Positions 9,665 through 46,550 of a stretch of 64,000 bases of DNA are shown here, in pieces. Numbering within the stretch: the first letter of the stretch is position 1; each line of letters starts with the position of its first letter. The notes beneath the pieces were generated by a model. That model worked only from the letters and a program-made list of their open reading frames with translations, made no database searches and was not told where the DNA came from. The position numbers and the translations under genes are program-made. Source of the DNA: Bryobacterales bacterium (GTDB taxonomy: Bacteria; Acidobacteriota; Terriglobia; Bryobacterales; UBA6623); contig OZ242259.1 in assembly GCA_965207035.1 (NCBI GenBank), positions 586,111 to 650,110 of the forward strand. The letters are read 5' to 3'.

Positions 9665-10046
9665 TCAGGCGGGCCGGACGCCCTGTAAGCCGGTTTCTGT
9701 ACCCGTCCGGAAACGGGTGGCAGCCATTCATCTCGAACGCTTGTTGCCAAACGCCTCTAGCGACCTACCCGGGACTCAGGCGCGACGGGCAGCCGCGTCG
9801 TCCCCTATTTGGTCTTGCTCCGCGTGGGGTTTACCCTGCCGTCGCGGTTGCCCGCGACGCGGTGCGCTCTTACCGCACCATTTCACCCTTGCCCCGGAGT
9901 CCGGGGCGGTATGTTTTCTGTGGCACTTTCCGTCGACGCCCCCTTGCGAGAACGCCTCCCGGCCGTTAACCGGCACGCTGCCCTGCGGAGACCGGACTTT
10001 CCTCCGTGCCCGAAGGCACCGCGACTGCCCGGACGACCGACCCTCC
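9658..10046 (-). ncRNA. rnpB: RNase P RNA, bacterial type A
   Basis: The minus strand carries GGAGGAAAGUCCGG (reverse complement of 9990-10003), GGGUGAAAUGGUGCGGUAAGAGCGCACC, CCAAAUAGGGG and AGAUGAAUGGCUGCCAC...ACAGAAACCGGCUUA. These are colinear with E. coli rnpB conserved regions. The ends are estimated from P1 pairing and are good to about 10 nt. Confidence 0.9.
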
Positions 10047-10096
10047 TACCAAGTATAGGGCCCTAGCAGGATGAGAGGACCGCTCCGCGATGGACG

Positions 10097-14957: not shown

Positions 14958-17942
14958 GTGGCATTGTTGCGGTCATTCCCCATTGCACTTGTTCTGCTGT
15001 TGACGGCGTGCAGCGTTTCACCTCCACCCGCAGGAGACGATTTCGAAGTTGTCGAAGGGCTCGAGATGACGCTTTGGGCGAGCGAGCCGCTGCTTGTAAA
15101 TCCGACCAATTTCGACATCGACGAGCGCGGCCGCGTGTGGTTCATCGAATCGGTGAACTACCGCAGCGATCTGAAGAGCAAGCCCAAGAATGATCTCGCC
15201 GGCGACCGCATCGTCATCCTCGAAGACACCGACGGAGACGGACAGGCGGATCACCGCAAGGTCTTCGACCAGCATCAGGAAATGCTCGCTCCCCTGGGCA
15301 TCTCAGTTCTGGGCAACAAGGTCGTTGTTTCCCAGTCTCCGGACCTGTTTGTGTACACGAAGGACGAGGACGACCGGATTGTTTCGAAGGAAACCCTGCT
15401 CACCGGCTGGTCCGGTGTCGACCACGATCACGGGCTGCACGTGGTGCTGTTCGGTCACGACGGGCGCTACTACTTCAATTCCGGGGACCAGGGCTTTGAC
15501 ATAACCGACCGGTCTGGGCGAGTCTTTCGCAGCAGTCCCGACGGACCGTATTACGCAGCGACGGTGCAGACGGTGAAGCCCGACGGCACTGATTTTCGCG
15601 TGTTGGCCCACAACGCCCGCAATCCCTACGAGATCGCCCTGGATTCCTTCGGTTCGATCTGGCAGACCGACAACGACGATGACGGTAATCAGTGGACGCG
15701 ACTGCTGTACGTGATGGAAGGCGCGGATTTCGGGTATTGGGGACCAGGAGGCAGGCGGTGGCGCGTGGACAAGGGCACTCACTTCCACGAGGAGCGGCCG
15801 GGAACCGTTCCGTACGTGGCACGCACGGGTCCGGGCTCTCCTACGGGGCTGGTCCTCTACGAAGGCGAGCTGCTACCAGCCAAGTATAGGAACCAGTTGT
15901 TGCATTCTGAGCCGGGCAAGCGCCTGATCCAGACTTTCATCATCCGGCCGGATGGAGCGGGATTCGCGATGAAGGCCGAGACCACGGTCGCTTCGACGGA
16001 TCCAATCTTCCGGCCTAGCGACCTCGCCGTTGCGCCCGACGGCGCGGTGTTCATTGCCGATTGGCAGGATCTCGTGGTCGGAGGTCACAACATGCTGGAC
16101 ATCGAGAGAGGCCGGATCTTCCGTCTCGCACCGATAGGGCACAAGTCCACGGTTCCACCTCTCGACCTGGAGAGCGAAGCTGGAGTGCTCGCCGCGTTCG
16201 GATCGCCGAACCAGGCCACGCGCTATCGCGCTTACCAGGAATTGCTGCTGCGTAACGACCAGGAGCGGGCGGCAATATTGTTGCGTGCCTGGCGTGGCGG
16301 AAGCGAAGTCTTGAGAGCCCGCGCCCTTTGGATGCTTGCGGGACTGAGTGCCGATGGGAAAGCAGCGCTCGAGGAGGCCCTCGGCTCAGACGACCCCCGA
16401 TTCCGAATCCTGGCCCTCCGGGTATCACGGCTGCTCGACTCCAGTTCTGTGGACGCACTCGGAGCGTTGGCTGCCGATCCCGACCCGCAAGTCCGGCGCG
16501 AAGTCGCTCTGGTTCTCCGCGACGTACCCGCCGAGTCAAAGATTGGCTTATGGCTGCAGTTGGCCGATGGATATGACGGTGCGGATCGTTGGTACCTCGC
16601 TGCGCTGCGAATCGGGGCGTTCGGTGCGGAAGATGCCATCTTCGCGGCCTTGCGCCAGCGGCATGCCGACTGGGACCCGCTGATCGCGGACTTGTACTGG
16701 GTGTTGCAAGCCCCGGCCTCGGGTGGGTATTTGTCGCGTGTTGTCGGAGACGATTCGAGACCTGTGGAGCAGCGCTTGCAGGCCCTGGATGCGCTCGGTT
16801 GGCTATCCGCGCCACGAGTTGCCCGCACTGTCGCGGCGATCGCCGCGAATCAAGCGGCGCCTTTGGAACTCAGGAACCGCAGCCTTTATTTCCTGACCAA
16901 GCAGCTCTACAGCGATTGGAGTGAAGTTCGGACGAGTCCGGCCGTGTTGGCAGCGATTGCTCACGGGCTTGAAGAGGATGGTACGCGATCACAAGCTCTT
17001 GAATTGGCGGCGTTATTGCCGGATACAGCGCTCGCCGACTCGCTGGGCCGGCTTGCAGCCGACGAATCCGCGGGAGAGGACGACAGGGGCACGGCCCTTC
17101 GGGTGCTGGGGAGAATCGGGGGAAATGCTGTTGCAAGTCTGCTTCGGAAGCAGTTGTCCCGGGGGCCGCTCGCATTGCGAATCGCGGCTGTAGACGGTCT
17201 CGGCGCGGCGGCCCCCGAAGACCTTAGCGAACTGCTCGTCGGCACGATCATTTCCGATTCCCCCAATGAAGTTCGCAGCGCGGCATTGGGGGTTCTAGGC
17301 CGGGGACCGGCGGGCATGCACTTGATTCTGGACATGGAGGAGTCGCAGAACCTGCCGGCAGAAATGCGCACGCTGGCTTCGGGGATTGTCAACTCTTCGC
17401 GCGACGCGACAGTCCGCGAGCGCGCCGGGAGACTTCTCCCGCCGCCGAAGAGCCGCAACGAGAGGCCGGTGATTCGTCCGCGCGAAATCATTGAGGCCGT
17501 CGGGAGCGCCAGTCGGGGGCGTGAAGTGTATCACCGCACGGACGGTGCAAACTGCGTCAAGTGCCATTCGCTGACGGCAGGCGAGGAACGAGTTGGACCC
17601 AGCTTGGCGGCGATCGGCTTGAAATACGGAAAGGCAGGGATGCTGAATGAAATCGTCTATCCCAGCGCAGGGATCGCACCTGAGTACCGGTCGTGGATCT
17701 TGGATACAGGCAGCCATGGTTTGATCACCGGGCTTCTCGTGGAAGACACGGCGGATCGAGTGGTGGTAAGGACTGAGAACGCTGACGAAATCCAACTGGC
17801 TCCGGAGGACATTTTCGAGCGACGTCAAGCCAATCTGTCGATCATGCCGGAAGATCTGGTTGGGGCAATGACGACGCAGGAACTCATCGATCTCCTGGAA
17901 TTCCTATCGACATTGCGGGCGGATTTGGACGGTTCCGGATAG
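14958..17942 (+). CDS. PVC-type heme-binding protein: membrane-bound dehydrogenase-like beta-propeller + HEAT repeats + C-terminal cytochrome c
   Basis: GTG 14958 gives MALLRSFPIALVLLLTAC, a lipobox (LTAC). The N-domain LWASEPLLVNPTNFDIDERGRVWFIES is followed by HEAT-like repeats. The C-terminus has a CVKCHS heme motif. The track ORF start at 14010 overlaps the opposite-strand gene and is rejected; the ATG at 14859 is an alternative. Confidence 0.7.
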   Translation: MALLRSFPIALVLLLTACSVSPPPAGDDFEVVEGLEMTLWASEPLLVNPTNFDIDERGRVWFIESVNYRSDLKSKPKNDLAGDRIVILEDTDGDGQADHRKVFDQHQEMLAPLGISVLGNKVVVSQSPDLFVYTKDEDDRIVSKETLLTGWSGVDHDHGLHVVLFGHDGRYYFNSGDQGFDITDRSGRVFRSSPDGPYYAATVQTVKPDGTDFRVLAHNARNPYEIALDSFGSIWQTDNDDDGNQWTRLLYVMEGADFGYWGPGGRRWRVDKGTHFHEERPGTVPYVARTGPGSPTGLVLYEGELLPAKYRNQLLHSEPGKRLIQTFIIRPDGAGFAMKAETTVASTDPIFRPSDLAVAPDGAVFIADWQDLVVGGHNMLDIERGRIFRLAPIGHKSTVPPLDLESEAGVLAAFGSPNQATRYRAYQELLLRNDQERAAILLRAWRGGSEVLRARALWMLAGLSADGKAALEEALGSDDPRFRILALRVSRLLDSSSVDALGALAADPDPQVRREVALVLRDVPAESKIGLWLQLADGYDGADRWYLAALRIGAFGAEDAIFAALRQRHADWDPLIADLYWVLQAPASGGYLSRVVGDDSRPVEQRLQALDALGWLSAPRVARTVAAIAANQAAPLELRNRSLYFLTKQLYSDWSEVRTSPAVLAAIAHGLEEDGTRSQALELAALLPDTALADSLGRLAADESAGEDDRGTALRVLGRIGGNAVASLLRKQLSRGPLALRIAAVDGLGAAAPEDLSELLVGTIISDSPNEVRSAALGVLGRGPAGMHLILDMEESQNLPAEMRTLASGIVNSSRDATVRERAGRLLPPPKSRNERPVIRPREIIEAVGSASRGREVYHRTDGANCVKCHSLTAGEERVGPSLAAIGLKYGKAGMLNEIVYPSAGIAPEYRSWILDTGSHGLITGLLVEDTADRVVVRTENADEIQLAPEDIFERRQANLSIMPEDLVGAMTTQELIDLLEFLSTLRADLDGSG

Positions 17943-18415
17943 CCGGAGGGATCTCCGGTGCGTGCGTCCCGTGTGCGGAGTGCGAATTCGTGTCCTCCAG
18001 CCGCCGTATTCGGTGAGATCGCTCTCGTCACTCGAATAAGCCGTCGCGCGGACCAACCGGCACGGTGAGTCAAGGGGCCTCATTCTGATCTCATGCTGAT
18101 TGCGACCTTTCAATCGGGTGTGTCAGCCGTACCAGCAAATGGCTGGCAACCAAGATCCAGTGGGTCCTTGGTCGGGGCTGAACGCCACTGCGAATGAAGC
18201 CGCGCCCGATGGGCCCCAACGCACATCGAGTTGGGTTCGCTTCGCCGACGGGTTTCCGTGGTGCCCATGGTACCTGCGAGCCCGGTGCGAGGTCGATCGC
18301 GGATAGTTGTGCTGCTACGGTGCGTTCCGACGGAGGGGGGATCGCACTACATTGGGCTCTGAGCCCGGAGCACCCAGATTTCGGCCCTAGCCAGTTGTGT
18401 GGCTCTTGAGACACA

Positions 18416-35277: not shown

Positions 35278-35448
35278 TAAGCGGTACTGAGGCGCTCGGA
35301 GACCCCATTATCAGACCAATTGTCTTTTAACTCACTGGTACTAATAGACTTATGGTCATATAAGGCGAGCATGGCCCGAGGCTTCCCGTTCCTAAAATAC
35401 CTCCGGTCTGCTAGTAAAACGTGGGGTATATCGTGATACGCTGGAGCC

Positions 35449-36633
35449 ATGGCAAGCATTCTTAACGCTCGATCCTGCAAGGCGGCGAGGCCAACACCGG
35501 GCCAGCGATTCACCTACTACGGAGACGGCCTCGGGCATGGCCTCCGCCTCCGCGTCGCTCAATCCGGCGCGAAGTATTGGGAGCAACGGCTCACGGTCAA
35601 CGGCAAGCGGCGGGACCTTGGCCTCGGGCCGTTCCCGGAGATTGACCTAGACGCGGCGCGGGAGCTTGCCCTAGACAACAAGCGGACGGCCCGCAAGGGC
35701 GGGAACCCGCTGGCGAATAGCATCACGTTCCGGGAGGCCAGCGACGCTTGCACGGCCCTTGACGCTGCGAGTTGGAAAACAGACAAGCAACGGCGGGACG
35801 CGGAGGCCATGATGGACCGATGGGCGCTGCCTCGCCTCGGGGCCGTCAAGGTTGCCGCGATCAACCGGGGGGACGTCATGGACGCGCTAGAGCCTATCTG
35901 GATTGATCGGGCAGCGACGGCCAAGCGGGTCCTACAGCGGCTCTCCCGCGTGTTCGATTACTGCGTGGGCCGGGGTTACCGCGACGACAACCCGGCGGAC
36001 GTGGCGATCATGACAGCGGCGCTCCCAAAGCAACCGAAAGCGACGAACGGCAACGGCAACGGCAACGGGGCGGCGCGGCATCATGAGGCCGTCCCCTATG
36101 CGGAGCTTGCCGACGCGCTGGCCAAGGTGGACGCCTCCAGTTCGGGCGCGACCGTCAAGGCGCTGGTCCGCTTTACGGCCCTCACGGCTGCCCGGATCGG
36201 GGAGGCGCGGGGCGCTCAGTGGTCCGAGATTGACCTAGACGGCGCGGTCTGGACGATTCCAGCGGATCGCATGAAGGGCGGGCGGGAGCATCGCGTCCCG
36301 CTGGCCGATGCGGCTGTGGCGATCCTCCGCCAACAGCTTGCCATCCGGCCCCGGCGCTGCCCGTTCGTGTTCACTGGCACGGCAGGGCGGACTATCGGGG
36401 AGGGAACAGTCCGTAAGCTGTTCCGGTCGCTCCAGACCATCGGGGACCCTCACGGCCTACGCTCCAGCTTCCGCGATTGGGCGGCAGAGAATACCGAGGC
36501 CCCCCGCGAAGTGCTGGAGACGTGCCTAGCGCATGTTGTCGGCGGCAAGGTCGAGCGGGCCTATGCACGGACGGACCTGCTGGACAAGCGGCGGGCCGTC
36601 ATGGACGCTTGGGCCGACTATCTGGCCCGCTGA
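35449..36633 (+). CDS. int: tyrosine-type site-specific integrase (P4/CP4-57-like, DUF4102 N-domain)
   Basis: N-terminus YYGDGLGHGLRLRVAQSGAKYWEQRLTVNGKRRDLGLGPFPEIDLDAARE. Catalytic region ARIGEARGAQWSEID, HRVPL, HGLRSSFRDWAAE and ERAYARTD (R..HxxR..Y). Confidence 0.9.
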   Translation: MASILNARSCKAARPTPGQRFTYYGDGLGHGLRLRVAQSGAKYWEQRLTVNGKRRDLGLGPFPEIDLDAARELALDNKRTARKGGNPLANSITFREASDACTALDAASWKTDKQRRDAEAMMDRWALPRLGAVKVAAINRGDVMDALEPIWIDRAATAKRVLQRLSRVFDYCVGRGYRDDNPADVAIMTAALPKQPKATNGNGNGNGAARHHEAVPYAELADALAKVDASSSGATVKALVRFTALTAARIGEARGAQWSEIDLDGAVWTIPADRMKGGREHRVPLADAAVAILRQQLAIRPRRCPFVFTGTAGRTIGEGTVRKLFRSLQTIGDPHGLRSSFRDWAAENTEAPREVLETCLAHVVGGKVERAYARTDLLDKRRAVMDAWADYLAR

Positions 36634-36653
36634 CACTCAGGACGGTCCCACAG

Positions 36654-36689
36654 CGGCCCCCGGAGCCAATCTGACGGCCTCGGGGGCCG
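36654..36689 (+). terminator. possible stem-loop after int
   Basis: CGGCCCCCG (36654-36662) pairs with CGGGGGCCG (36681-36689) around an 18-nt loop, followed by TTCGTG. The loop is large and the U-tract poor, so this is weak. Confidence 0.25.
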
Positions 36690-36835
36690 TTCGTGCGTCT
36701 AGGGGTCCGGGAGCGATTGGCGGCGAGTACAGCGTCTTGGCAGAGCACGCGAGGCCCCAGTCGCTCCCGGTTCGGGCGATCCTCGCGGTAATGGTCTTCG
36801 CCCCGAGGATCGGCCCGAGCCTCCAGAGTACCCCC

Positions 36836-36881
36836 GATTGGCGATGGCGGGCAGTGATTGGCGATGGCGGGCAGTGATCGG
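36836..36881 (+). repeat. tandem 20-bp repeat pair, set 1 (GATTGGCGATGGCGGGCAGT x2 + GATCGG)
   Basis: Perfect tandem copies at 36836-36855 and 36856-36875. The whole ~46-bp block recurs at 37386-37431. Confidence 0.9.
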
Positions 36882-36941
36882 CCCCGGCCAATCGGAGGCG
36901 CAGTCTACCCCAATGGACGGCGGAGCGGGTCCGGGGTGGAC

Positions 36942-37301
36942 CTAGCTCTTAGGTCCAGACCGCAGCGCCTCGGCGGTGTGCGTCAACAGGATTGTCCGGC
37001 TGTCCAAGTATGGGGCGGGGTTGGCCTCGCGTTCGGCTTCCATTAACCCCAGACGGGCGCTATGCCAAGCGACTGATCCGTACCGTACCGTGTCCGATCG
37101 GTTCCCGGATGCCCTGACAATCCAATGCAGCAGTCGTATCAGGGGCGATGGCAGTCTCGTCTCTTGTAACCGTCTCGCCATGGCCCCAGAGGCAATGTCA
37201 TGAGGGCCGACGGTGGGAGACGCTGCCGTCATGCGGACGCCTCCGGGGGAACGGCGAGACGCGCTGACGTTGACCTGTGCTAAGTTGGGGGTCTGGGTCA
37301 T
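36942..37301 (-). CDS. hypothetical protein between the two repeat sets (possible island regulator; coding status uncertain)
   Basis: This is the only non-low-complexity ORF in 36.64-37.85 kb. An internal ATG would give a 79-aa product starting MARRLQETRLPSPLIRLLHW. There is no clear SD and no recognisable domain. Confidence 0.25.
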   Translation of the reverse strand: MTQTPNLAQVNVSASRRSPGGVRMTAASPTVGPHDIASGAMARRLQETRLPSPLIRLLHWIVRASGNRSDTVRYGSVAWHSARLGLMEAEREANPAPYLDSRTILLTHTAEALRSGPKS

Positions 37302-37385
37302 GGCGGGGCTTCGCCTTTGATCCTTGACGCCTCGGAGCTTGGGTCAGTTCCGGGGCGTTTTCATTGATCGCCTCCAGCTTACCTC

Positions 37386-37431
37386 GATTGGCGATGGCGG
37401 GCAGTGATCGGCGATGGCGGGCAGTGATCCG
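37386..37431 (+). repeat. tandem 20-bp repeat pair, set 2 (GATTGGCGATGGCGGGCAGT, GATCGGCGATGGCGGGCAGT, GATCCGG)
   Basis: It is a direct repeat of set 1, 550 bp downstream and in the same orientation. Confidence 0.9.
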
Positions 37432-37439
37432 GCCCCCTG

Positions 37440-37600
37440 CCGCAAGACCCCCCGGCCCGTCCCGCAAGACCCGTCCCGCTAGACCCCTCCCCTGCCGCAA
37501 GACCCGTCCCCTGCCCGTGGGGGGGGGGGGAGGGTGTGTCAACATGGCACACCCTCCCCGGCCCCCGGCCCCCTGCCGTTAGACCCCTGCCGCTAGACCC
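37440..37600 (+). repeat. array of six direct CCG(C/T)(A/T)AGACCC 11-mers flanking a G12 tract and a 12-bp inverted repeat
   Basis: The 11-mers lie at 37440, 37462, 37476, 37495, 37576 and 37590. The G12 tract is at 37519-37530. GGGGAGGGTGTG (37527-37538) and CACACCCTCCCC (37548-37559) are perfect inverted arms with a 9-nt spacer. Confidence 0.9.
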
Positions 37601-37628
37601 CTCCCCGTCCCGGTCCCCTCCCGGTCCC

Positions 37629-37688
37629 GATCCGTCCCGATCCGTCCCGATCCCTCCCCGATCCGTCCCGATCCGTCCCCGATCCGGG
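37629..37688 (+). repeat. tandem decamer array GATCCGTCCC (about 5.5 units, two 11-nt variants)
   Basis: Read directly from the sequence: gatccgtccc gatccgtccc gatccctcccc gatccgtccc gatccgtcccc gatccggg. Confidence 0.9.
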
Positions 37689-37782
37689 CAAAACGGACCT
37701 TGGGGACCCCTGCCCCGGACCCGCTCAGGGTAGAGCAGCGTAGCGGCTTAGGGACGAGCTAACACACCCCCACGGGGGGCCG

Positions 37783-37834
37783 GATTCCCCATAACCGCGT
37801 GTGGGGAATCACTGACGGCCATTTGGCCGTCAAT
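37783..37834 (+). promoter_or_regulatory. composite control element upstream of terL: 9-bp-stem inverted repeat + 20-bp palindrome TGACGGCCATTTGGCCGTCA
   Basis: GATTCCCCA (37783-37791) and TGGGGAATC (37802-37810) form the inverted repeat. The palindrome is at 37813-37832 and ends 26 nt before the terL ATG. The palindrome recurs at 39753-39772 and 44109-44128. Confidence 0.6.
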
Positions 37835-37858
37835 TTCGGGCCGGGGCGAGCCTGAGAT

Positions 37859-39424
37859 ATGGGAACCCCCAACACGGCCTCCGCGCTGATCCGCTACCTA
37901 GAGACGCTGACCTGCACTCAGGGCCAAGGTGCGGGCGATCCGCTGGAGGTCCTGCCGTGGCAGCGGCGGTTTATCAGGGGCGCATTCTCGGGGCCGGGGG
38001 ACGCGGCCCTGAGCGTGGCAAGGGGGAACGGCAAGACAACGCTGCTGGCCGGGGTCGCTGCTGCGTTCGTGAATGGCCCGCTCAGGCAGCCTCGGGCGGA
38101 GGTTGTGATCATCGCGGCCAGCTTGGCTCAGGGCAAAATTTCGTTTTCCCACACGCGGGCATTCTTGGAGGCGAGCGGTTGCGACCTGACGGCGCGCAAG
38201 CTGTGGAAATGCCACGACGGCGTCAATAGTGCGAGCATCGAGCATCGGCCCTCGGGGTCCCGCGTTCGGGTTATCGGATCGGACCCCAAGCGGGCGCACG
38301 GTCTGGCCCCCGCGCTGATCCTCGCCGATGAACCCGCGCAATGGCCCCCCAACACGGCTGAGGCCATGGTCGCGGCCCTCAAGACCGCTCGGGGCAAGAT
38401 TCCCGGCGCGAAGATGATCGCGCTAGGGACGCGGCCAGCGGAACCCGATCATTGGTATCAGCGGATGCTAGACGGGCAGGGCGTCAGCTACGCGCAATCC
38501 CATGCGGTCCCCTCCGGGACCGGGGACGCGATGCTCGGGCAGCGTGGATTTTGGCGCAAGGCGAATCCGTCGCTCGGGTTCATGCCAGACCTAGAGGCCG
38601 CGATCCGGGACGAATGGTCAACGGCCAGCAGGGACCCGTCGCTGCTGGCCTCATTCAAGGCATTACGCCTGAATATGGGGGTCCCGGACGTTCTGGCCTC
38701 AAGCCTACTGGAGGCGGAGACGTGGCGGCGCATCGAGGCCCCGGAGGGCCAAGGCGTCGAGCGGCGCGGGCCGTGGGCGCTCGGGGTCGATTTGGGCAGT
38801 ACAGCGGCCATGTCTGCCGTGGCGGGGTACTGGCCCGAGACGGGCGCATTGACGGCCCTTGCTTGCTTCCCGGCAGACCCTCCGCTGGCGGATCGGGGAC
38901 GGCAGGATGGGGTCGCTGACCTGTACGTCCGCATGGCGGAGCGGGGCGAGTTGATTATAGCGGGGCGCTACGTCTCGGAGGTCCCCGCGCTGTTGCGGGA
39001 GGTTGTGGACCGATGGGGGGTCCCGGACGTGATTGTCTCGGATCGCTGGAGGCTCGGGGAATTGCGGCAAGCATTGGAGGCGGCAGGTATGCCCAGGACG
39101 GCCCTTGCCACGCGGGGGCAGGGGTACTTTGACGGCGGGGCGGACGTGCGGGAGTTCCGTAAACAGTGCGCCTCGTTGGCCGTGCGGCCTGACGTTTCGC
39201 TGCTGCTGCGGGCCGCGATGGCGGAGGCCCGCGTTCAGACTGACGCGGCTGCTAACGCGAAGCTGGCGAAGGGTTCCGAGGGGGGACGGCGGCGGCGGGC
39301 GAGGGATGACGCGGCGGCGGCTGCGATCCTCGCAGTAGCGGAGGGGACCCGTAGGGCCGGGACCGGGACCGGGACCGGGGACAGCGACGGGACCCCACGG
39401 CGGAGGCTGCGAGTATGCGCGTAG
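37859..39424 (+). CDS. terL: phage terminase large subunit
   Basis: Walker A context SVARGNGKTTLLAG and a Walker B-like LILADEPAQW. The C-terminal nuclease-half length is typical of the Terminase_1 family. Total 521 aa. Confidence 0.8.
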   Translation: MGTPNTASALIRYLETLTCTQGQGAGDPLEVLPWQRRFIRGAFSGPGDAALSVARGNGKTTLLAGVAAAFVNGPLRQPRAEVVIIAASLAQGKISFSHTRAFLEASGCDLTARKLWKCHDGVNSASIEHRPSGSRVRVIGSDPKRAHGLAPALILADEPAQWPPNTAEAMVAALKTARGKIPGAKMIALGTRPAEPDHWYQRMLDGQGVSYAQSHAVPSGTGDAMLGQRGFWRKANPSLGFMPDLEAAIRDEWSTASRDPSLLASFKALRLNMGVPDVLASSLLEAETWRRIEAPEGQGVERRGPWALGVDLGSTAAMSAVAGYWPETGALTALACFPADPPLADRGRQDGVADLYVRMAERGELIIAGRYVSEVPALLREVVDRWGVPDVIVSDRWRLGELRQALEAAGMPRTALATRGQGYFDGGADVREFRKQCASLAVRPDVSLLLRAAMAEARVQTDAAANAKLAKGSEGGRRRRARDDAAAAAILAVAEGTRRAGTGTGTGDSDGTPRRRLRVCA

Positions 39425-39732
39425 GCTCAGGGCAACCGCTTACAGGGAATCCACGGCCCCTGTATCGGCCAGACCTGCACGGGCGGCGCTGGCAAGCGAT
39501 CCGGCGGGCCGTGCTGCTGCGGGACCGCTACCGCTGTAGAGTGTGCCTTCGGGCGGCGAGGCTCGAAGTTGACCATATCCGGCCCATCCGGCAGGGCGGC
39601 GAGGCGTGGAACCTAGCGAACCTCCAGACCCTCTGCCGTGGCTGCCACATTGACAAGACACGGCGCGAGAATACCGGGCGGAGGCGCAACCGCTTGCCTC
39701 CCGGATGGGACGCGCTGCTGCTGGAATTGTAG
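39415..39732 (+). CDS. HNH endonuclease
   Basis: CRVCLRAARLEVDHIRPIRQGGEAWNLANLQTLCRGCHIDKT is an H-N-H motif with CxxC pairs. It overlaps the terL stop by 10 nt. Confidence 0.85.
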   Translation: MRVGSGQPLTGNPRPLYRPDLHGRRWQAIRRAVLLRDRYRCRVCLRAARLEVDHIRPIRQGGEAWNLANLQTLCRGCHIDKTRRENTGRRRNRLPPGWDALLLEL

Positions 39733-39752
39733 GACCCGCTTGGCCCGTTTAC

Positions 39753-39772
39753 TGACGGCCATTTGCCCGTCA
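39753..39772 (+). promoter_or_regulatory. second copy of island palindrome (TGACGGCCATTTGCCCGTCA) upstream of capsid gene
   Basis: It has one mismatch to the perfect palindrome and shares the flanks ACTGACGG...CGTCAAT. It ends 40 nt before the capsid ATG at 39813. Confidence 0.55.
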
Positions 39773-39812
39773 ATCGAGGGCCGCTGATACCGTGAGGCTT
39801 GGAGGTTGCCTG

Positions 39813-41066
39813 ATGACTAACAGACAACGCTTGGAGCTACGATCCTCAGAGATTCGCAGCCGCTTGAATGAGATCGCGGGCCTAGAATCCGAGGCCCTAA
39901 CGGATGAGATTCGCAGCGAATCGGACAAGCTGCAAGGCGAGTATCGGGGCGTCGAGACTCAGCTACGCGCTGCCATTCTGGCGGAGGGCGGAGACGGCAA
40001 GGGGGGCGATGGTTCCCCACAACCGCGTGTGGGCAATGACGGGAACCCCGAGGCCCCCGAGGATCGGGAGCTACGCTCCCTGATCGGCAAGGCGTCGCTG
40101 GCAAGCATCGCTGACGCGGCGCTAGAGCAGCGCAGCACGGACGGCGCGGAGGCGGAGCTACAGCAGCACTTGGGGCTAGGGCCGTCTCAGGTCCCCGTCG
40201 AGTTGCTGCGAGGCGATCCGCTCCCGGAGGCGCTGGAGACGCGGGCCGTAACTCCCGCACCGGCTGATACTGGCGTCTCGCAAGCGGCGATCATTCCCTA
40301 TCTGTTCCCGCGTTCGGCGGGCGCATATCTCGGGGTCAGCAACCCCACGGTCCCCGTAGGGGAGCGGCTGTTTCCCGTGCTGACTACCCCGGCAACGGTC
40401 CACGCTCCGGCCAAGGATGCGGACGCGGCGGAGACTACGGGCAGCTTCGCCACAACGGCCCTGAAACCGGCGCGGCTGCAAGCTGAGTTCTTTTTTAATC
40501 GGGAAGATTTGGCGACGTTCGCCGGAATGGAGGCCGCGCTGCGCCAGAATCTCGGGGACGCGCTGGCCGACGCGCTGGACGGCAAGATCATAGGGCAATT
40601 CTTCGCGGCCTCGGGGGGTCTGGCGAACCCCACGAACCCCACGGCAGAGGCTACGTTTTCGACCTATCGCGGCCAGCTATTCGGAGGCATTGATGGGCGC
40701 TACGCCAACACGGCGGCTGACCTGCGCTGGCTGGTCAACAGCGACACATACAAGCATCTTGCCTCGAAGTATCGCGGCAACACTGCCGACGATTCGGCCC
40801 TCGATTCGCTCATGCGCGTCTCGGGCGGGGTCCGCGTCTCAACGCACATTCCGGCCAAGGCGGGCAACGTCAGCGGGTTCCTAGCGTCCAAGGCGGGCGC
40901 ACGCGGCCAGAATGCGGTCGCTCCGGTCTGGCAGGGGGTCAGCCTGATCCGCGACGAATTCACCAAGGCCGACCGGGGTCAGATTCGCTTGATCGCGGTC
41001 ATGCTCTACAGCGTGGCAATTCTCAGGGCCGATGGATTCCAGCGGCTCGAAGTTCACACGGGTTGA
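39813..41066 (+). CDS. phage major capsid protein, HK97 family
   Basis: GGAGG at 39801-39805, then ATG 39813. N-terminal coiled-coil delta-like region (RQRLELRSSEIRSRLNEIAGLE...). The C-terminal part ...WQGVSLIRDEFTKADRGQIRLIAVMLYSVAILRADGF is typical of HK97-fold MCPs. Confidence 0.8.
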   Translation: MTNRQRLELRSSEIRSRLNEIAGLESEALTDEIRSESDKLQGEYRGVETQLRAAILAEGGDGKGGDGSPQPRVGNDGNPEAPEDRELRSLIGKASLASIADAALEQRSTDGAEAELQQHLGLGPSQVPVELLRGDPLPEALETRAVTPAPADTGVSQAAIIPYLFPRSAGAYLGVSNPTVPVGERLFPVLTTPATVHAPAKDADAAETTGSFATTALKPARLQAEFFFNREDLATFAGMEAALRQNLGDALADALDGKIIGQFFAASGGLANPTNPTAEATFSTYRGQLFGGIDGRYANTAADLRWLVNSDTYKHLASKYRGNTADDSALDSLMRVSGGVRVSTHIPAKAGNVSGFLASKAGARGQNAVAPVWQGVSLIRDEFTKADRGQIRLIAVMLYSVAILRADGFQRLEVHTG

Positions 41067-41092
41067 TGGATAACCCGTGCGGAGACTGACGG

Positions 41093-41707
41093 ATGGAACG
41101 GCTAGAAACTGGCGATGCTTTTGTCCTGAGCGTCCCTGAGCTTGAAATCCGGCGGGGTAGGGGCGGCGGCGGCGGGGCGGGTCGATACGTCCTTGGCCGC
41201 TTCCCCTACGGAGTCACGGCAACGATACGGGACCGGGGACGCCTCCGCAAGGAACGGTTTGGGGTCAAGGCGTTCGCTCGGGCAATCGAGCGGGCGGAGG
41301 AGGAGATTAACCTCTTGGCCGGTCACAATTTCGGCCAGCCGCTGGCCTCCAAACGGGCCGGGTCGCTGAAGCTGGACGATACCCCCGAGGCCCTGACATT
41401 CGAGGCCAAGCTGCCCGACAAGGGGCCGTCATGGATTGAGGATACGGTTCTGGCGCTGGAGGCCGGGTTGGCCGTGGGCGTCTCGCCGGGATTCCGTGTG
41501 CCTCCGCTCAACGTGGTCCCGGACGCGGAGGTCGAGGTCCCGGAACCCGGCAATCCGGGGGTGTTTATCCGGCAGATCAATCAAGCCATGCTTTACGAGT
41601 TGTCCATCGTGACGCGACCCGCTTACAGCGCCTCCAGCGCGGAGGTCGAGGCGCGGGCCGTTGCGTACAGCTTCGCCGATCCTGAGCGGAGGCGGCTATG
41701 GCTGTAA
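41093..41707 (+). CDS. HK97-family prohead protease
   Basis: YGVTATIRDRG...ERFGVKAFARAIE....INLLAGHNFGQPLA...L.LDDTPEALTFEAKLPD matches the S78/U35 prohead protease layout (conserved H in the LxxH block). It lies adjacent to the capsid gene. Confidence 0.65.
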   Translation: MERLETGDAFVLSVPELEIRRGRGGGGGAGRYVLGRFPYGVTATIRDRGRLRKERFGVKAFARAIERAEEEINLLAGHNFGQPLASKRAGSLKLDDTPEALTFEAKLPDKGPSWIEDTVLALEAGLAVGVSPGFRVPPLNVVPDAEVEVPEPGNPGVFIRQINQAMLYELSIVTRPAYSASSAEVEARAVAYSFADPERRRLWL

Positions 41708-42030
41708 TGGACCTAGCGGCGCTGTATGAGGCCGTCACGCTCAACGCGGGGCCTCCAAGCGGCCCCGAGGCTGCCCGCTGGGAGTCGCTGTATGCGGGTG
41801 CCTGGGCGATTATTGACAGGTATGCTCCCGAGGCCCCCGAGGGCGTCAAGAATGAGGCGCTAGTCCGTTTCGCGGGGTACGCGGCGGACGTGCAAGGCGT
41901 CACTAAAGAGGCCATCGGGGAGCAGTCGGTAGAGTACACGGACCGCACGTCCCCGGCAGTATTCAGGCGATCCGGCGCGATGGGGTTGCTGTCCCCGTGG
42001 AAACGGCGGCGGGCCGGGAGGATCGGCTGA
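41698..42030 (+). CDS. gp6-like head-tail connector (adaptor) protein
   Basis: 110 aa, overlapping the protease stop. The ...AGAWAIIDRYAPEAPEGVKNEALVRFAGY... pattern is typical of the phage gp6-like head-tail connector family. Confidence 0.55.
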   Translation: MAVMDLAALYEAVTLNAGPPSGPEAARWESLYAGAWAIIDRYAPEAPEGVKNEALVRFAGYAADVQGVTKEAIGEQSVEYTDRTSPAVFRRSGAMGLLSPWKRRRAGRIG

Positions 42031-43088
42031 TGCGCTGGCCGTGGCAACGCTCCGAGGCCGACGCGCTGGAGACCCGCGACGCTGACTACAGCGACGCGAT
42101 AGTCGGGCAGATTCTACGCAACGCTACGGGCGGGGAACCCGCAAGCATGTACGCGCTGGCCGCGCTGGAGGCGGCGGCGGGAATCGTGGGGCGATCCTTC
42201 GCCGTTGCGTCCGTCCAGTCGGCCTCGGGTCTGGTAACGGAGGCGCTGCCCCCCTCCCTGCTGGCCCTGATCGGTCGCTCCCTGATCCGGCGCGGGCAGC
42301 TTGTCTGTAGCATCGAGACGACGGGCGGACGCCTTGCGCTGCTGCCCGCTGCAAGTTGGGACGTCCAAGGCGGGCCAGACCCTCGAAGCTGGCAGTACCG
42401 CCTCGAATTGGGGGGACCCTCGGGCAGCGTCACGCGGCGCAATCCGGGCGAGGGCGTGATAGACCTGAGGTATAGCTGCGATCCGGCGCAACCATGGCGC
42501 GGCCTCGGGCCGCTACAGGTTGCGAGGCTAGACGGGCGGCTAGGTTCCGAGTTGGCGGCGGCGCTCGGAGACGAGGCGGCAGGGCCTCGGGGTTCGCTGC
42601 TGCCCGTACCGGGCGAGGGCGGAGACGGGGAATTAGACGAGCTACGGGCCGATATCGCGGGGTTGCACGGCAAGGCGGCGCTGCTGGAAACCACTAGCGG
42701 CGGATGGGGCGAGGGCAAGGGCGCGGCCCCTCAGCAGGATTGGACGCCTAAGCGGCTCGGGCCGAATCCTAGCGCGGCGCTGGTACAGCTCCGCCGGGAC
42801 GTTGAAACGTCCGTGGTTGCCGCGTGTGGCGTCCCGCTGGAATTGCTGACTCCGGCTGCTGGAACAGGCGGACGCGAATCTTACAGACGCTTCCTATTCT
42901 CGACTGTGGCCGCGCTCGGGCGCATCGTTGCGGACGAATTGACCCGCAAGCTGGAGACGCCAGTATCGCTCGACTGGGGCGAGCTACGGGCGGCGGATAT
43001 CTCGGGACGGGCGAGGGCCTACCAGTCGCTAGTCGGGGCCAACATGGACGCCTCCAAGGCGGAGCGACTGGCGGGTCTGCTGGAGTAG
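42030..43088 (+). CDS. phage portal protein (HK97 family, short form)
   Basis: TGATG overlap with the adaptor stop (42028-42032). The central and C-terminal regions ...RESYRRFLFSTVAALGRIVADELTRKL... are portal-like. Confidence 0.65.
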   Translation: MRWPWQRSEADALETRDADYSDAIVGQILRNATGGEPASMYALAALEAAAGIVGRSFAVASVQSASGLVTEALPPSLLALIGRSLIRRGQLVCSIETTGGRLALLPAASWDVQGGPDPRSWQYRLELGGPSGSVTRRNPGEGVIDLRYSCDPAQPWRGLGPLQVARLDGRLGSELAAALGDEAAGPRGSLLPVPGEGGDGELDELRADIAGLHGKAALLETTSGGWGEGKGAAPQQDWTPKRLGPNPSAALVQLRRDVETSVVAACGVPLELLTPAAGTGGRESYRRFLFSTVAALGRIVADELTRKLETPVSLDWGELRAADISGRARAYQSLVGANMDASKAERLAGLLE

Positions 43089-43104
43089 ATAGGGGGTAAC
43101 TGGG

Positions 43105-43425
43105 ATGCACTCAAACTGCTGTATCACCTGCGGGGCGTCGCTGGCAGGGTTCCGCTCAAATCGGAGATTCTGCGAGCCTTGCATGGTGCGATGGAATCGC
43201 GAGAGGAAAGGCCCCTACGACCGGGAGCGGCGGGCGCGGGAGCGGGAGCTACGCGGCAAGCGGACGTGTGCTGGTCTTGGCTGCGAGGTCGATATCACGA
43301 ACACGCACGGCAGGACCCTCCGCTGTCCCGATTGTGCGCGGGAGCGGGCGCTGGAGGGGAACCGGCGGAGTAGCGCACGATGGGCGGCGCGTAAGCGGGA
43401 GCGGGCAGCCAAGCGGGCAGCCTAG
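43105..43425 (+). CDS. Arg-rich double zinc-ribbon protein (106 aa), function unknown
   Basis: Two Cys pairs per half: CCITCG...CEPC and CAGLGC...CPDC. A strongly basic RERRARERELRGKR linker and tail suggest nucleic-acid binding. Confidence 0.55.
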   Translation: MHSNCCITCGASLAGFRSNRRFCEPCMVRWNRERKGPYDRERRARERELRGKRTCAGLGCEVDITNTHGRTLRCPDCARERALEGNRRSSARWAARKRERAAKRAA

Positions 43426-44069
43426 CGGGCCTCGCGGGCCTCGGCAAGGTTGATCCTCGCCTCCCATCCCTGAGCGGACAGCGACGGGGCGCACGTGCGG
43501 GCCTCGCGGCCCTCCCTGACGCGATCCTTGACGGCGGCTGCCCAATTGCCCGATACCTGAGCGACGGCCCCGGCCAGCGTCTCCAGCAGGGCGTCCAGTT
43601 CGGCTGCCTCCAGTTCGGCTGCCTCTAGGTATTCGATGGCCCCGCTCAGGAGGCCGTCAAACCTCCAGCTTGCGCGGCTGCCGTCCCCGAATTCGGACGC
43701 GGCAACCTCCGGGGCGAGGCGGCGGAGTTCCACGGCCCCGGCCAGCAGTTCGTCGGGCGAGCGAATCAGGCGCGGCGCTAGGAATGCGCGAGCCTCCAGC
43801 AGTCGGCCTAGGGCGTCCCGCTCCATGGCGTCGAGGCGATCCGAGACTCCCCGGCCAATCGGGGCGCTGCCCCGGATGCGCGCCAACAGCGACCGCTCCG
43901 GGCCATCGTAAAGCGTCTCGGCCTCGACTAGTTCCGGCGGATCGCTCGGGGCAGGGTCCCGCAGCACGGTAGCGCAGCGTTCCCCCGTCTCCGCATCGTG
44001 CCAGCATCGCAGCGTGAGGCGCGGCGTGGGGTGCAGGTCAATGTCCATGATCCGGTTTGTAGTGAACAT
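43422..44069 (-). CDS. hypothetical protein, reverse-oriented island gene
   Basis: ORF 43422-44180 (TTG). The ATG at 44069 (MFTTNRIMDIDLH...) is preferred because it leaves the palindrome at 44109-44128 in the upstream region. The protein is helical and acidic, with no recognisable domain. Confidence 0.5.
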   Translation of the reverse strand: MFTTNRIMDIDLHPTPRLTLRCWHDAETGERCATVLRDPAPSDPPELVEAETLYDGPERSLLARIRGSAPIGRGVSDRLDAMERDALGRLLEARAFLAPRLIRSPDELLAGAVELRRLAPEVAASEFGDGSRASWRFDGLLSGAIEYLEAAELEAAELDALLETLAGAVAQVSGNWAAAVKDRVREGREARTCAPSLSAQGWEARINLAEAREAR

Positions 44070-44108
44070 GCCCAACAGTGTATCGCGGGGCCTCGGGGCC
44101 TCGGGGAT

Positions 44109-44158
44109 TGACGGGCATATGGCCGTCAGTGATTCGGGACAACCGCGTGAGGGGAACC
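44109..44158 (-). promoter_or_regulatory. third copy of island palindrome (TGACGGGCATATGGCCGTCA) plus flanking AACCGCGTG module
   Basis: The palindrome is at 44109-44128, 39 nt upstream of the minus-strand ATG at 44069. The adjacent GATTCGGGACAACCGCGTGAGGGGAACC matches 22/28 with the module at 37783-37810. Confidence 0.55.
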
Positions 44159-44295
44159 CGCTACTCCCGAAAACGTGCAAGATGGGCGGTTTTTTTTGGT
44201 GTGGGGGCGTGTGGGGTATCGGGGTCCCCGGTACTCTCCCGAATAGGACCCTAAACTATTGATTTATAAAGACCTTAGAGGCCATATCCCGCATA

Positions 44296-44579: not shown

Positions 44580-46550
44580 CGGTAGTTTACGGGCTTTCGT
44601 CGCTGTCGTGGGGGTAGGGCCCGCGAAGTGATTCCATCCACAGCAGTTACCAGTCGGCGCTCCATCCTCTTTTGTATTACCCTATATGAGATTCTGGATC
44701 AATTCCTTTGAGAATTGCTTGCATTCGCTTCCATGGTGTTCTAGTATTACCCTATATGGCATCCATCGTCGGCAAGAAAAAGGGCAACCAAACCTACTAC
44801 TACGTCGTCACCTCCGGCCGCGTCAACGGCAAGCCCCGCATCACCCACCAAACCTACCTCGGTACCGCCGATCGACTCGCCCAACTCGTCCGCGACAAGG
44901 CCGCCCCCATCCCTCTCGAGGCCACGGCCCGCGACGCCGGCCTCCCGGTCGCCCTCTGGCAGGCCGCCCAACTCTCCGGCACCCTCGACGCCCTCCTCTC
45001 CGTCTGGCCCGCCCCTAAACGCGGCCCCTCCATCCCCCATTTCCTGCTCCTCGCTGCCTTCCACCGCATCTGCGCACCAGGCCCCAAGACCGAGGTCGCC
45101 GACTGGTACCGCCACTCCGTCCTCGCCGACCTGTGGGGCTTCGCCCCCAGCCTCTTCTCCTCCCAGGCCTTCTGGGACCATTTCGACGCCATCGACGTCA
45201 GCGCGGCGCTCACCGAGCCCTCCTCTGACGAACTCGAGCAGGCCCAGCTGGCCCTGCTGCAGGCCTTCCGCGCCCGCGACCTCGTCAGCCAACGCGTGCT
45301 GGCCTACGACACCACCAATTTCCACACCTGGATCGGCACCACCAACACCCGCAACCAACTCGCCCAGCGCGGACACAACAAGCAGAAGCGCCACGACCTG
45401 CGCCAGATCGGCCTCAGCTACGCCCTCGACGGGCAGCACGGCCTCAGCCTGTGTCATCACGTCTACCCGGGCAACGTCACCGACCGCGACGAGTTGCCGG
45501 CCTGCCTCGGGCGCATCACGCGCCTGCTCGACGGGGCGTCGATTCCGCGCGAGACGGTCACACTGGTGTTGGACAAGGGCAGCGCGGCGCTGGCCAACAC
45601 CCTGGCCCTGCAGGCCAGCGGGCTGGGCTGGATCGCAGCGCTGCCGTGGGACCAGGCCCCGGCCGCGCTGCGCTCGCGTGCGGTCGAGGAGTTGGCCGCG
45701 GTGCCTGGCGAGCCCGGCCTGCGGGTCGGGTCCGAGCGCACCCTGGTGCACGGGGCCGAGTATCTGGGCGTGCTCCGGCATTCGGCGGGTTTCGCCGCCG
45801 AACAGTTCCAGAGCGTGACCCTGTCGCTGGCGAAGGCGACGCAGAAGCTGCGGGCCCTCGCGCGGGAGATCGGCCAGCCCCGGGACCGGCACACGGAACA
45901 GGGCTTGCGCAACCGGATCCAGCGCTGGCTGCGGCCGAACTTCGTTTCGCAGGCGCTGAGTTACACGCTGCGGCGCGGCGCGGACCGCAGTTGGGACCTG
46001 CAGTTCGCGATCGACGCGGAGGCGCTGCACCGGCTGTTGACCGAGCGCTTCGGGCGGACCACGCTGGTAACCAACCGGCTGGACTGGAGCGCGGCCGAAG
46101 TGGCCACGGCCTACAACGGCCAGCAGCACGTGGAGCGCGTGTTCCGCGGCCTCAAAGGCGGGGACTGGCTGGGATGGGGGCCGCTGCACCACTGGACCGA
46201 CAGCAAGATCCGGGTGCATGCGTTTTACTGCCTGTTGGGGGTGTCGCTGATGCAGTACCTGTACCAGCAGGCACAGGCTGCGTGGCCGCTGTTGACCATG
46301 GAAGGGCTCAAGCACGAACTGGGGCAGATCCAGCGCATCGACCTGCTGTATCCGCCGCTGGGGGCGAAGGGACCGCCGCGGGTGGCGACCATCACGTCGA
46401 AGCAGACATTGACCCAAGCGGCCCTGGTGTCCGAACTGGGATTGGAGAAGCTGCTCAAGACCGACGGTAGGTAATACAGCCAGCCCACACCTAACTGACT
46501 CTGAGCCAGTACGTTACAACTATTTTTCCTTCAACTTCAGTAAACTACCG
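44580..46550 (+). mobile_element. insertion sequence, 1,971 bp, 11-bp perfect terminal IRs (CGGTAGTTTAC), 4-bp CTAG target duplication
   Basis: IRL 44580-44590 and IRR 46540-46550 (GTAAACTACCG). CTAG lies at 44576-44579 and 46551-46554. It carries a single DDE transposase ORF. Confidence 0.8.
44756..46474 (+). CDS. DDE transposase, IS4-superfamily (IS1634-like)
   Basis: The N-terminus MASIVGKKKGNQTYYYVVTSGRVNGKPRITHQTYLGT resembles the IS1634-family N-terminal pattern. 572 aa. The 556-aa antisense ORF is GC shadow. Family assignment is tentative. Confidence 0.75.
   Translation: MASIVGKKKGNQTYYYVVTSGRVNGKPRITHQTYLGTADRLAQLVRDKAAPIPLEATARDAGLPVALWQAAQLSGTLDALLSVWPAPKRGPSIPHFLLLAAFHRICAPGPKTEVADWYRHSVLADLWGFAPSLFSSQAFWDHFDAIDVSAALTEPSSDELEQAQLALLQAFRARDLVSQRVLAYDTTNFHTWIGTTNTRNQLAQRGHNKQKRHDLRQIGLSYALDGQHGLSLCHHVYPGNVTDRDELPACLGRITRLLDGASIPRETVTLVLDKGSAALANTLALQASGLGWIAALPWDQAPAALRSRAVEELAAVPGEPGLRVGSERTLVHGAEYLGVLRHSAGFAAEQFQSVTLSLAKATQKLRALAREIGQPRDRHTEQGLRNRIQRWLRPNFVSQALSYTLRRGADRSWDLQFAIDAEALHRLLTERFGRTTLVTNRLDWSAAEVATAYNGQQHVERVFRGLKGGDWLGWGPLHHWTDSKIRVHAFYCLLGVSLMQYLYQQAQAAWPLLTMEGLKHELGQIQRIDLLYPPLGAKGPPRVATITSKQTLTQAALVSELGLEKLLKTDGR

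Follow-up and report, generated by a model that had tools for sequence, protein, structure and literature searches.

A palindrome private to one 8.8-kb capsid-encoding island lies at three inferred promoters and may be the operator of an island-specific regulator

The 64-kb stretch of DNA analyzed here (the window) contains a compact integrase-bearing island, over which GC content rises from about 0.61 to 0.67–0.70 between ~36 and ~44 kb. Apart from the integrase gene and one ORF next to it, its genes fall into three units: a terminase/HNH pair, a capsid-to-portal operon, and a single convergent gene on the reverse strand (Table 1). For the capsid gene (P0001, 417 aa) and the reverse gene (P0121, 215 aa), the assigned ATG starts match those of the deposited proteins, and the reverse gene has coding-type GC3. 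A conserved minus-strand ORF of 119 aa (36942–37301) is 57% identical to an ORF of the closest relative, L036. Searches against Pfam and PHROGs found no tail, lysis, replication or known regulator genes in the island. The flanking genes (DUF1501, PSCyt1/PSCyt2/PSD1 and sulfatases) indicate, from their sequences, a Planctomycetota-type host.

Table 1. Positions in the window of the island, its genes and the sequence elements discussed in the text
Feature	Position	Strand	Description
Island	35421..44219		8.8 kb; bounded by direct repeat GTGGGGTAT (at 35421 and 44211)
Integrase gene	35449-36633		P4-type
Candidate cos site	37702..37730	+	Family-conserved GGGGACCCCTG (37702-37712) plus about 18 nt ending in GGG
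Module B copy 1 (B1)	37783..37810	+	GATTCCCCATAACCGCGTGTGGGGAATC; abuts A1; forms hairpin
Motif A site 1 (A1)	37811..37834	+	ACTGACGGCCATTTGGCCGTCAAT; perfect 8-4-8 palindrome core 37813-37832; upstream of terL
Candidate -10-type hexamer, terL	37848..37853	+	GAGCCT; 13 nt after site 1, 5 nt before ATG 37859; promoter element inferred
Unit 1	37859..39732	+	terL (37859-39424), HNH endonuclease (39415-39732)
Motif A site 2 (A2)	39751..39774	+	ACTGACGGCCATTTGCCCGTCAAT; between HNH stop (39732) and capsid ATG (39813)
Extended -10-type element, capsid operon	39785..39793	+	TG-a-TACCGT; hexamer 13 nt after site 2; inferred
Unit 2	39813..43425	+	HK97-type capsid, S78 prohead protease, conserved 110-aa protein, portal, two-zinc-ribbon basic ORF (43105-43425)
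Module B copy 2 (B2)	40011..40038	+	Within the capsid ORF; the N-terminal region has a lineage-specific insertion here
Unit 3 (reverse gene)	43422..44069	-	215 aa; convergent
-10-type hexamer, reverse gene	44077..44082	-	TACACT; 7 nt before ATG 44069, 24 nt after site 3; inferred
Motif A site 3 (A3)	44107..44130	-	Minus strand reads ACTGACGGCCATATGCCCGTCAAT; upstream of reverse orphan gene
Module B copy 3 (B3)	44131..44158	+	Abuts A3; strand orientation as B1 although A3 is inverted

Several features of the island and its borders were recorded alongside. The att core, GTGGGGTA(T/C), lies at 35421–35429 and 44211–44219 in the window, the first copy only 19 nt before the integrase ATG, and at 5314 and 14281 in L036. 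It is therefore common to two islands at different host loci; that of L036 interrupts a peptidase S15/S9 gene. Beyond attR, some 480 nt further right, is an IS-type DDE_Tnp_1 transposase ORF (44708–46474; GC3 0.89, local GC 0.71), preceded by two copies of GTATTACCCTATATG at about 44674 and 44741. Two pairs of a 20-bp tandem repeat, GATTGGCGATGGCGGGCAGT (36836–36880 and 37386–37430), bracket the 119-aa ORF and are related, in inverted orientation, to a three-copy motif of L036, GGTCAACACTTGCTCTCCGCCATC (6896, 7307 and 14173); by sequence these repeats look like iterons or operators. Between the same ORF and the candidate cos site, the interval 37434–37690 is a dense C-rich run of short repeats, with a 14-bp CCCGTCCCGCAAGA-type unit, about eight copies of a 10-bp unit (GATCCGTCCC), a G11 run and a 22-nt inverted repeat (37520–37566). 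This run may serve as an origin or as an accessory to packaging; the island itself carries no replication gene.

The element of main interest is a 24-nt near-palindrome, motif A, present in three copies. Read toward the downstream gene, all three sites conform to ACTGACGGCCAT[T/A]TG[G/C]CCGTCAAT; the conserved unit is asymmetric and points at the gene that it precedes. The dyad has 8-bp arms around a 4-bp spacer, with no arm mismatch at site 1 and one each at sites 2 and 3, which have the imperfect right arm GCCCGTCA in common. Dyad symmetry with helically phased half-sites, as found here, is expected of an operator, but a palindrome by itself does not discriminate between a protein site and a hairpin. 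Every copy is intergenic, and intergenic DNA makes up roughly 15% of the island. At sites 1, 2 and 3, the ATG follows after 24, 38 and 37 nt when counted from the 24-mer, or after 26, 40 and 39 nt when counted from the 20-mer, close to the 26–40 nt given in the initial annotation, whose sequences and coordinates for the three copies were reproduced. When the window was searched for TGACGGCC-N4-GGCCGTCA with up to two mismatches, exactly three matches were obtained against 0.07 expected, and none of 100 dinucleotide shuffles gave three. Allowing a third mismatch added one weak match, which is at chance level, and a scan with variable spacers returned the same three sites and no more. The earlier statement that the palindrome occurs nowhere else in the 64 kb is thus upheld.

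Looser resemblances to motif A were also seen. A degenerate palindrome with a 5-nt spacer, TGACGGCC-TCGGG-GGCCGTTC (36672–36692), lies 39 nt past the integrase stop codon and could be a weak fourth site or the int terminator. The half-site TGACGGCC occurs in isolation seven times in the island (35421–44219), at 35841, 36594, 36672, 38850, 41424, 41730 and 43652, compared with 0.6 in dinucleotide shuffles and five occurrences in the other 55 kb. The same 8-mer is only in the top 2% of 8-mers of island coding DNA, and its enrichment may be compositional.

Motif A is confined to this island. Host DNA flanking it in the window (55 kb) holds no copy, and IMG/VR gave no match. A degenerate 20-mer scan of 185,579 GTDB genomes, representatives that did not include the source genome, returned 35 singletons; the taxa are unrelated and do not include Planctomycetota, and no island-like genes lie nearby. 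The single match of the 24-mer in JGI metagenomes is inside a TfoX-like coding sequence (FLIDGHMAVS) and is attributable to chance. The box of a host global regulator (e.g., SOS/LexA-type) was considered and is unlikely because the flanks have no copy, the public collections yielded nothing beyond chance, and other Planctomycetota have no match.

Motif A is held in register with sequences that resemble core promoter elements. A 46-nt cassette is common to sites 1 and 2, and within it the motif ends exactly 13 nt 5′ of GAGCCT (terL) or TACCGT (capsid operon); beyond the palindrome, 13 of the 22 positions of the cassette are identical. The terL hexamer is homologous to TACCCT of L036, with the A(-11) and T(-7) positions kept, and the capsid hexamer is followed by GGAGG (39800–39804), 8 nt before the ATG. 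For the reverse gene the hexamer makes a good -10; it is separated from site 3 by 24 nt, which contain an 8-nt tandem duplication, CCCCGAGG. The additional 11 bp are approximately one helical turn, which leaves motif A on the same helical face. A position fixed relative to the putative core promoter is a further property expected of an operator. Since the motif ends 13 nt before the hexamer at sites 1 and 2, it covers the -35 position there, spanning about -48 to -25 with its center near -36.5; at site 3 the center would be at approximately -47.5.

A scan with an E. coli-type sigma-70 consensus called no promoter near the three sites, and a literature search for a Planctomycete promoter consensus yielded nothing useful. 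The sigma-70 scan is superseded by a pattern at the gene starts of the elements themselves. At 8 of 34 gene starts in five islands (the window and relatives L036, L037, L057 and L058), the ATG comes 5–8 nt after the end of a TAnnnT hexamer. Examples are the window integrase (TACGCT-6-ATG) and reverse gene (TACACT-7-ATG), terL of L036 (TACCCT-5-ATG), and terL (TATGGT) and capsid (TAATAT) of L037, each 6 nt before the ATG. Because only 1.4 such starts would be expected, the hexamers are credible -10 elements, and the pattern points to leaderless-type promoters with little or no -35. It also suggests that members of this element family commonly have leaderless mRNAs and promoters without a -35; the reverse gene is probably leaderless.

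The initial annotation had read the palindrome as a dimeric-regulator operator or as a promoter element for a dedicated activator or sigma factor, and had added that it might be the handle through which a helper phage de-represses the island. The 13-nt register and the shared cassette bear out the general idea of a promoter-associated regulator site. The sigma-factor version fares poorly. It would treat motif A as the -35-type element of a dedicated sigma factor, either as an ECF-like GGAATC-N17-CGTCAA or as motif A combined with the downstream hexamer, and on inspection sites 1 and 3 do read G/CGAATC-N17-CGTCAA, which is ECF-promoter-like. However, the GAATC element is missing at site 2, the spacing between motif and hexamer (13, 13 and, 11 bp longer at site 3, 24 nt) is incompatible with the fixed spacing of a sigma factor, sigma elements are not palindromic, and no sigma gene was found in the island. 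We regard this as the least probable of the explanations considered.

At sites 1 and 3 motif A abuts a second repeat, module B, with core AACCGCGTG. The initial annotation had noted a flanking module at these two sites; it is real (21/26 identical between them) but is not limited to two copies, as a third lies at 40011–40036 in the capsid ORF. All three copies in the window are direct on the + strand, so site 3 combines an inverted motif A with a direct module B and is not a simple inversion of site 1. The module reads GATTCCCCAyAACCGCGTGTGGGGAATC and contains the quasi-palindrome TTCCCCACA-N6-TGTGGGGAA, the arms of which look similar to a DnaA box, TTATCCACA. Module B had no match in IMG/VR. 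L036 likewise has three copies, in other places (6835–6861, 9574–9600 and 14200–14225), and some copies are in coding DNA, at the terL/HNH junction in the case of L036 and, in the window, in an insertion near the capsid N terminus.

The sequence that precedes terL in these elements includes a probable packaging site. Homologues of the capsid number in the hundreds. Four contigs encoding such homologues were retrieved (L036, L037, L057 and L058), and a scan of IMG/VR added 19 loci, many of them virome contigs of 9–12 kb that start ~200–250 nt before terL. In 11 of 24 loci, the exact 11-mer GGGGACCCCTG precedes terL and is on its strand (in the window, at 7939 in L036, 8102 in L058, 7721 in L039, 8607 in L042, 5958 in L053 and 9124 in L054, and at the ends of L047, L048, L049 and L051), and it is kept across elements whose TerL proteins are only 25–70% identical. 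Four virome contigs end 16–18 nt past it, at the G-run. From this sequence pattern, GGGGACCCCTG is probably the cos site of the whole family. Three observations on individual contigs are added here. L051 (10.75 kb, all genes on one strand) has an O-like replication initiator gene (HTH_36, 9853–10368) just before cos; SIR2_2/DUF87 genes, possibly defense cargo, follow the L058 island (15145–18383); and the 5′ end of L050 (1–113) is a 113-nt perfect palindrome, probably an assembly artifact because L052 has plain sequence there.

With the predicted cos end near 37730, A1 would lie ~80–100 nt inside the left genome end, where cosB sits in lambda-type systems. This raises the question of whether motif A acts as a nucleic acid structure (an RNA or single-stranded DNA hairpin serving as a terminator, processing or stability element) or as the cosB part of a terminase recognition region. 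The 101 nt between cos and terL contain four tandem hairpins, of which A1 is one (fold z = -4.3), and the hairpin previously described at site 1 is real, with 11 pairs in RNA including one G-U. In L036, a palindrome homologous to motif A, CCACCGCC-ATTG-GGCGGTCC, lies beside a module B and differs by one symmetric, compensatory change of G:C to C:G. At sites 2 and 3, however, the folds are no better than those of shuffled sequences (z = -1.5 and -0.95), and the two sites share an uncompensated C-C mismatch. A terminator is further opposed by the tails, which have no U-tract after any copy (AATTTCGG, AATCGAGG and AATCCCCG), by an intrinsic-terminator scan that called none of the three sites, and by the lack of an upstream co-directional gene at sites 1 and 3. 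Rfam gave no family. Three dispersed copies make no sense for a cosB, a role that GGGGACCCCTG probably fills, and L036 has neither module B nor motif A between cos and terL. We consider a structural or packaging role for motif A improbable.

L036, the only close relative available, was compared with the window. Its capsid is 80% identical and its gene order is the same, and both motif A and the reverse gene are absent from it. Relative to L036, the window has an insertion of ~70 nt just upstream of the terL -10 candidate. This insertion contains a G/C hairpin along with B1 and A1, and a remnant, GATTCCC, is left at that point in L036. The right end of L036 has its own repeated motif and a reverse gene that is unrelated and matches DUF2513 weakly. 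The module B that adjoins its motif A-like palindrome is also, toward its opposite side, part of a composite: that B is succeeded by GGACTGCCC-N4-GGGCAGTCC, then after 10 nt by GATACT and, 7 nt further on, by the ATG that starts a 79-aa ORF. No three-copy palindrome was found in L036 or L037, the closest relatives. Different palindromes overlie the same core promoters elsewhere: GACACAA-TATC-TTGTGTC in L047, CCCACA-GTA-TGTGGG in L051 and GTAAC-ATCG-GTTAC in L046 at terL, and GTGTCA-TAAT-TGACAC in L057 at the capsid gene. Such differences between related elements are consistent with an operator; conserved architecture with variable sequence is what marks specificity-determining operators. Against an operator, L036 appears to manage without a shared one.

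The same comparison admits the view that the three copies are relics of a recent duplication or recombination of a promoter cassette, in which the palindrome has no present function. The B1–A1 block is an insertion beside a remnant, the similarity of the cassettes runs on into their flanks (over 46 nt for sites 1 and 2, and over 54 nt in inverted orientation for sites 1 and 3), and the motif is confined to one island. Yet the 24-mer is 22–23/24 identical among sites against ~60–67% for the flanks, so the palindrome is the conserved part of the cassettes; moreover, symmetry is kept in all three copies and the register with the -10 hexamers is preserved. We judge a functionless relic to be very improbable.

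Two island products were examined as possible partners of motif A. The reverse gene product is an orphan: in 5.8 billion clusters its sole match is itself, and low-complexity matches were all that came from a full HMMER scan of 1.8 billion representatives; its structure model (pLDDT 45) is unusable. The zinc-ribbon ORF (43105–43425, +, 106 aa) contains two CxxC...CxxC modules, each followed by an Arg-rich helix (RWNRERK and RWAARKRER), and is predicted to fold as two Zn-knuckle-plus-helix modules. It is absent from the deposited protein set and no homologues were found. For both products, Pfam, PHROGs, PDB sequence searches, HMMER, and AlphaFold with Foldseek were all null, and no DNA-binding domain or HTH was detected in the reverse gene product or any other island ORF. 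The initial annotation had named the zinc-ribbon protein, beside the 36942–37301 product and helper proteins, as a candidate cognate factor. This proposal found no backing, as the protein gave no Ogr/Delta or other family signal and did not match Ogr_Delta (PF04606) even at E ≤ 10. In distant relatives, a similar basic motif (AYxREYRRKKR) is fused to the N terminus of TerL, a hint of a TerS-like role in DNA recognition. The reverse gene product is the best candidate for a putative cognate regulator of motif A.

The sign of the regulation was weighed from promoter geometry. Late genes of phages and satellites are usually under positive control (P2 Ogr/P4 Delta, Mu Mor/C), and motif A could be a late-gene activator site that replaces a missing -35 and through which terL, the capsid operon and the reverse gene would be turned on jointly. 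Such an activator might be encoded in the island (e.g., the zinc-ribbon protein, whose two modeled Zn-knuckle-plus-basic-helix modules could contact two half-sites) or supplied by a helper phage. No -35 hexamer is recognizable in either the terL or the capsid promoter, and the -10 candidate of terL is weak; these features weigh against a repressor and fit activator-dependent late promoters at least equally well. The placement of motif A is less favorable to activation: a center near -36.5 is not the usual -41.5 or -55, and with ~-47.5 at site 3 the geometry is not uniform. In addition, the extended -10 of the capsid promoter could work unaided, and the zinc-ribbon ORF has no family, homologue, structural match or deposited record to recommend it as an activator. 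On balance, an activator site seems unlikely, though it is the alternative to which we give most weight.

We conclude that motif A is, to judge from its sequence context, a regulator-binding site integral to three putative promoters. Our preferred reading, held tentatively and with somewhat less than even confidence, is that it serves as operator for a single dimeric regulator specific to the island. This regulator is most likely a repressor, for which the orphan reverse gene is the candidate. A dimer of it on motif A would occlude the -35 region, a contact site of RNA polymerase, in the promoters of terL-HNH and capsid-portal, and would thereby silence the two morphogenesis units. At site 3, the regulator would bind one helical turn further upstream of the leaderless reverse-gene promoter, and if the reverse gene does encode the regulator, site 3 would provide autoregulation.

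The operator reading has parallels in the repressor operators of temperate phages and satellites (lambda CI at OR/OL, P22 C2 and SaPI Stl). As in those systems, motif A is a near-palindrome (8-4-8, about 20–24 bp) in several copies per element that overlap core promoters, with one copy before a candidate regulator gene, and the sequence varies among related elements in the manner of immunity specificity. It differs in that the island has no detectable HTH or DNA-binding domain, the sites are on terminase and capsid promoters rather than early ones and occur singly rather than in tandem cooperative sets, and protein binding to motif A is a prediction. The late promoters of P2 and P4 have a dyad, TGT-N12-ACA, near -55, at which small zinc-finger activators (Ogr and Delta) shared by helper and satellite act. 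The likeness extends to a recurring dyad upstream of morphogenesis operons, the lack of a -35 and a small zinc-binding basic protein. However, motif A is centered near -36.5 or -47.5, its sequence is unrelated, the zinc-ribbon ORF matches neither PF04606 nor other families, and no helper is known for the island. The stoperators of mycobacteriophage L5 resemble motif A as several oriented repressor-site copies in short intergenic gaps, aligned with transcription. They are asymmetric 13-mers in about 30 copies that block elongation, whereas motif A comprises three palindromes at -10 hexamers, and its isolated half-sites are not convincingly enriched in island coding DNA.

As an element, the island is most like the cf-PICIs, with an integrase, its own terL, HNH, capsid, prohead protease and portal genes, probable cos-type packaging and no tail, holin or lysis genes (PMC10085698; 10.1101/2025.02.11.637232). 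It is half their size, and its gene order (terL-HNH-capsid-protease-x-portal) is unusual. Pfam and PHROGs searches found no AlpA/MerR/Stl regulator, primase-replicase, TerS or head-tail adaptor/connector. SatelliteFinder defines cf-PICIs by 11 core components (PMC10085698), of which at most six are recognizable in the island by Pfam and PHROGs rather than by SatelliteFinder profiles. The cf-PICI hosts described are Proteobacteria and Firmicutes, in contrast to the Planctomycetota-type host read here.

A more far-reaching possibility is that motif A is a single control point, at which the orphan regulator or a helper-phage factor gates packaging, capsid assembly and excision together in a minimal, undescribed lineage of elements. 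Excision would be gated through the A3/B3 pair in the attP arm, about 60–110 bp from the att core, giving a Cox-like coupling of recombination to late transcription in a satellite without replication or regulatory genes of known type. We consider this doubtful. If true, minimal elements (about 9–11 kb) that are cos-packaged and have capsid and terminase genes but no tail would form a single-control lineage, found in Planctomycetota and in environmental bacteria of other kinds.

Taken alone, motif A is one more operator-like palindrome and moderately ordinary: it is an ordinary kind of switch with a new sequence, for which no named regulator family can be claimed. Within an 8.8-kb island that has the full kit for a DNA-filled capsid and nothing recognizable for replication, regulation, tails or lysis, it marks three inferred promoters as well as a candidate orphan regulator. 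The more interesting by-products are the minimal island family, its cos motif and its leaderless promoters. In the host phylum, as read from the flanking genes, phage satellites and promoter architecture are essentially uncharacterized; the register between motif A and the -10 hexamers, the leaderless pattern and the cos motif offer mutable targets for learning how such an island is kept silent, how it is switched on and whether a helper phage is involved.
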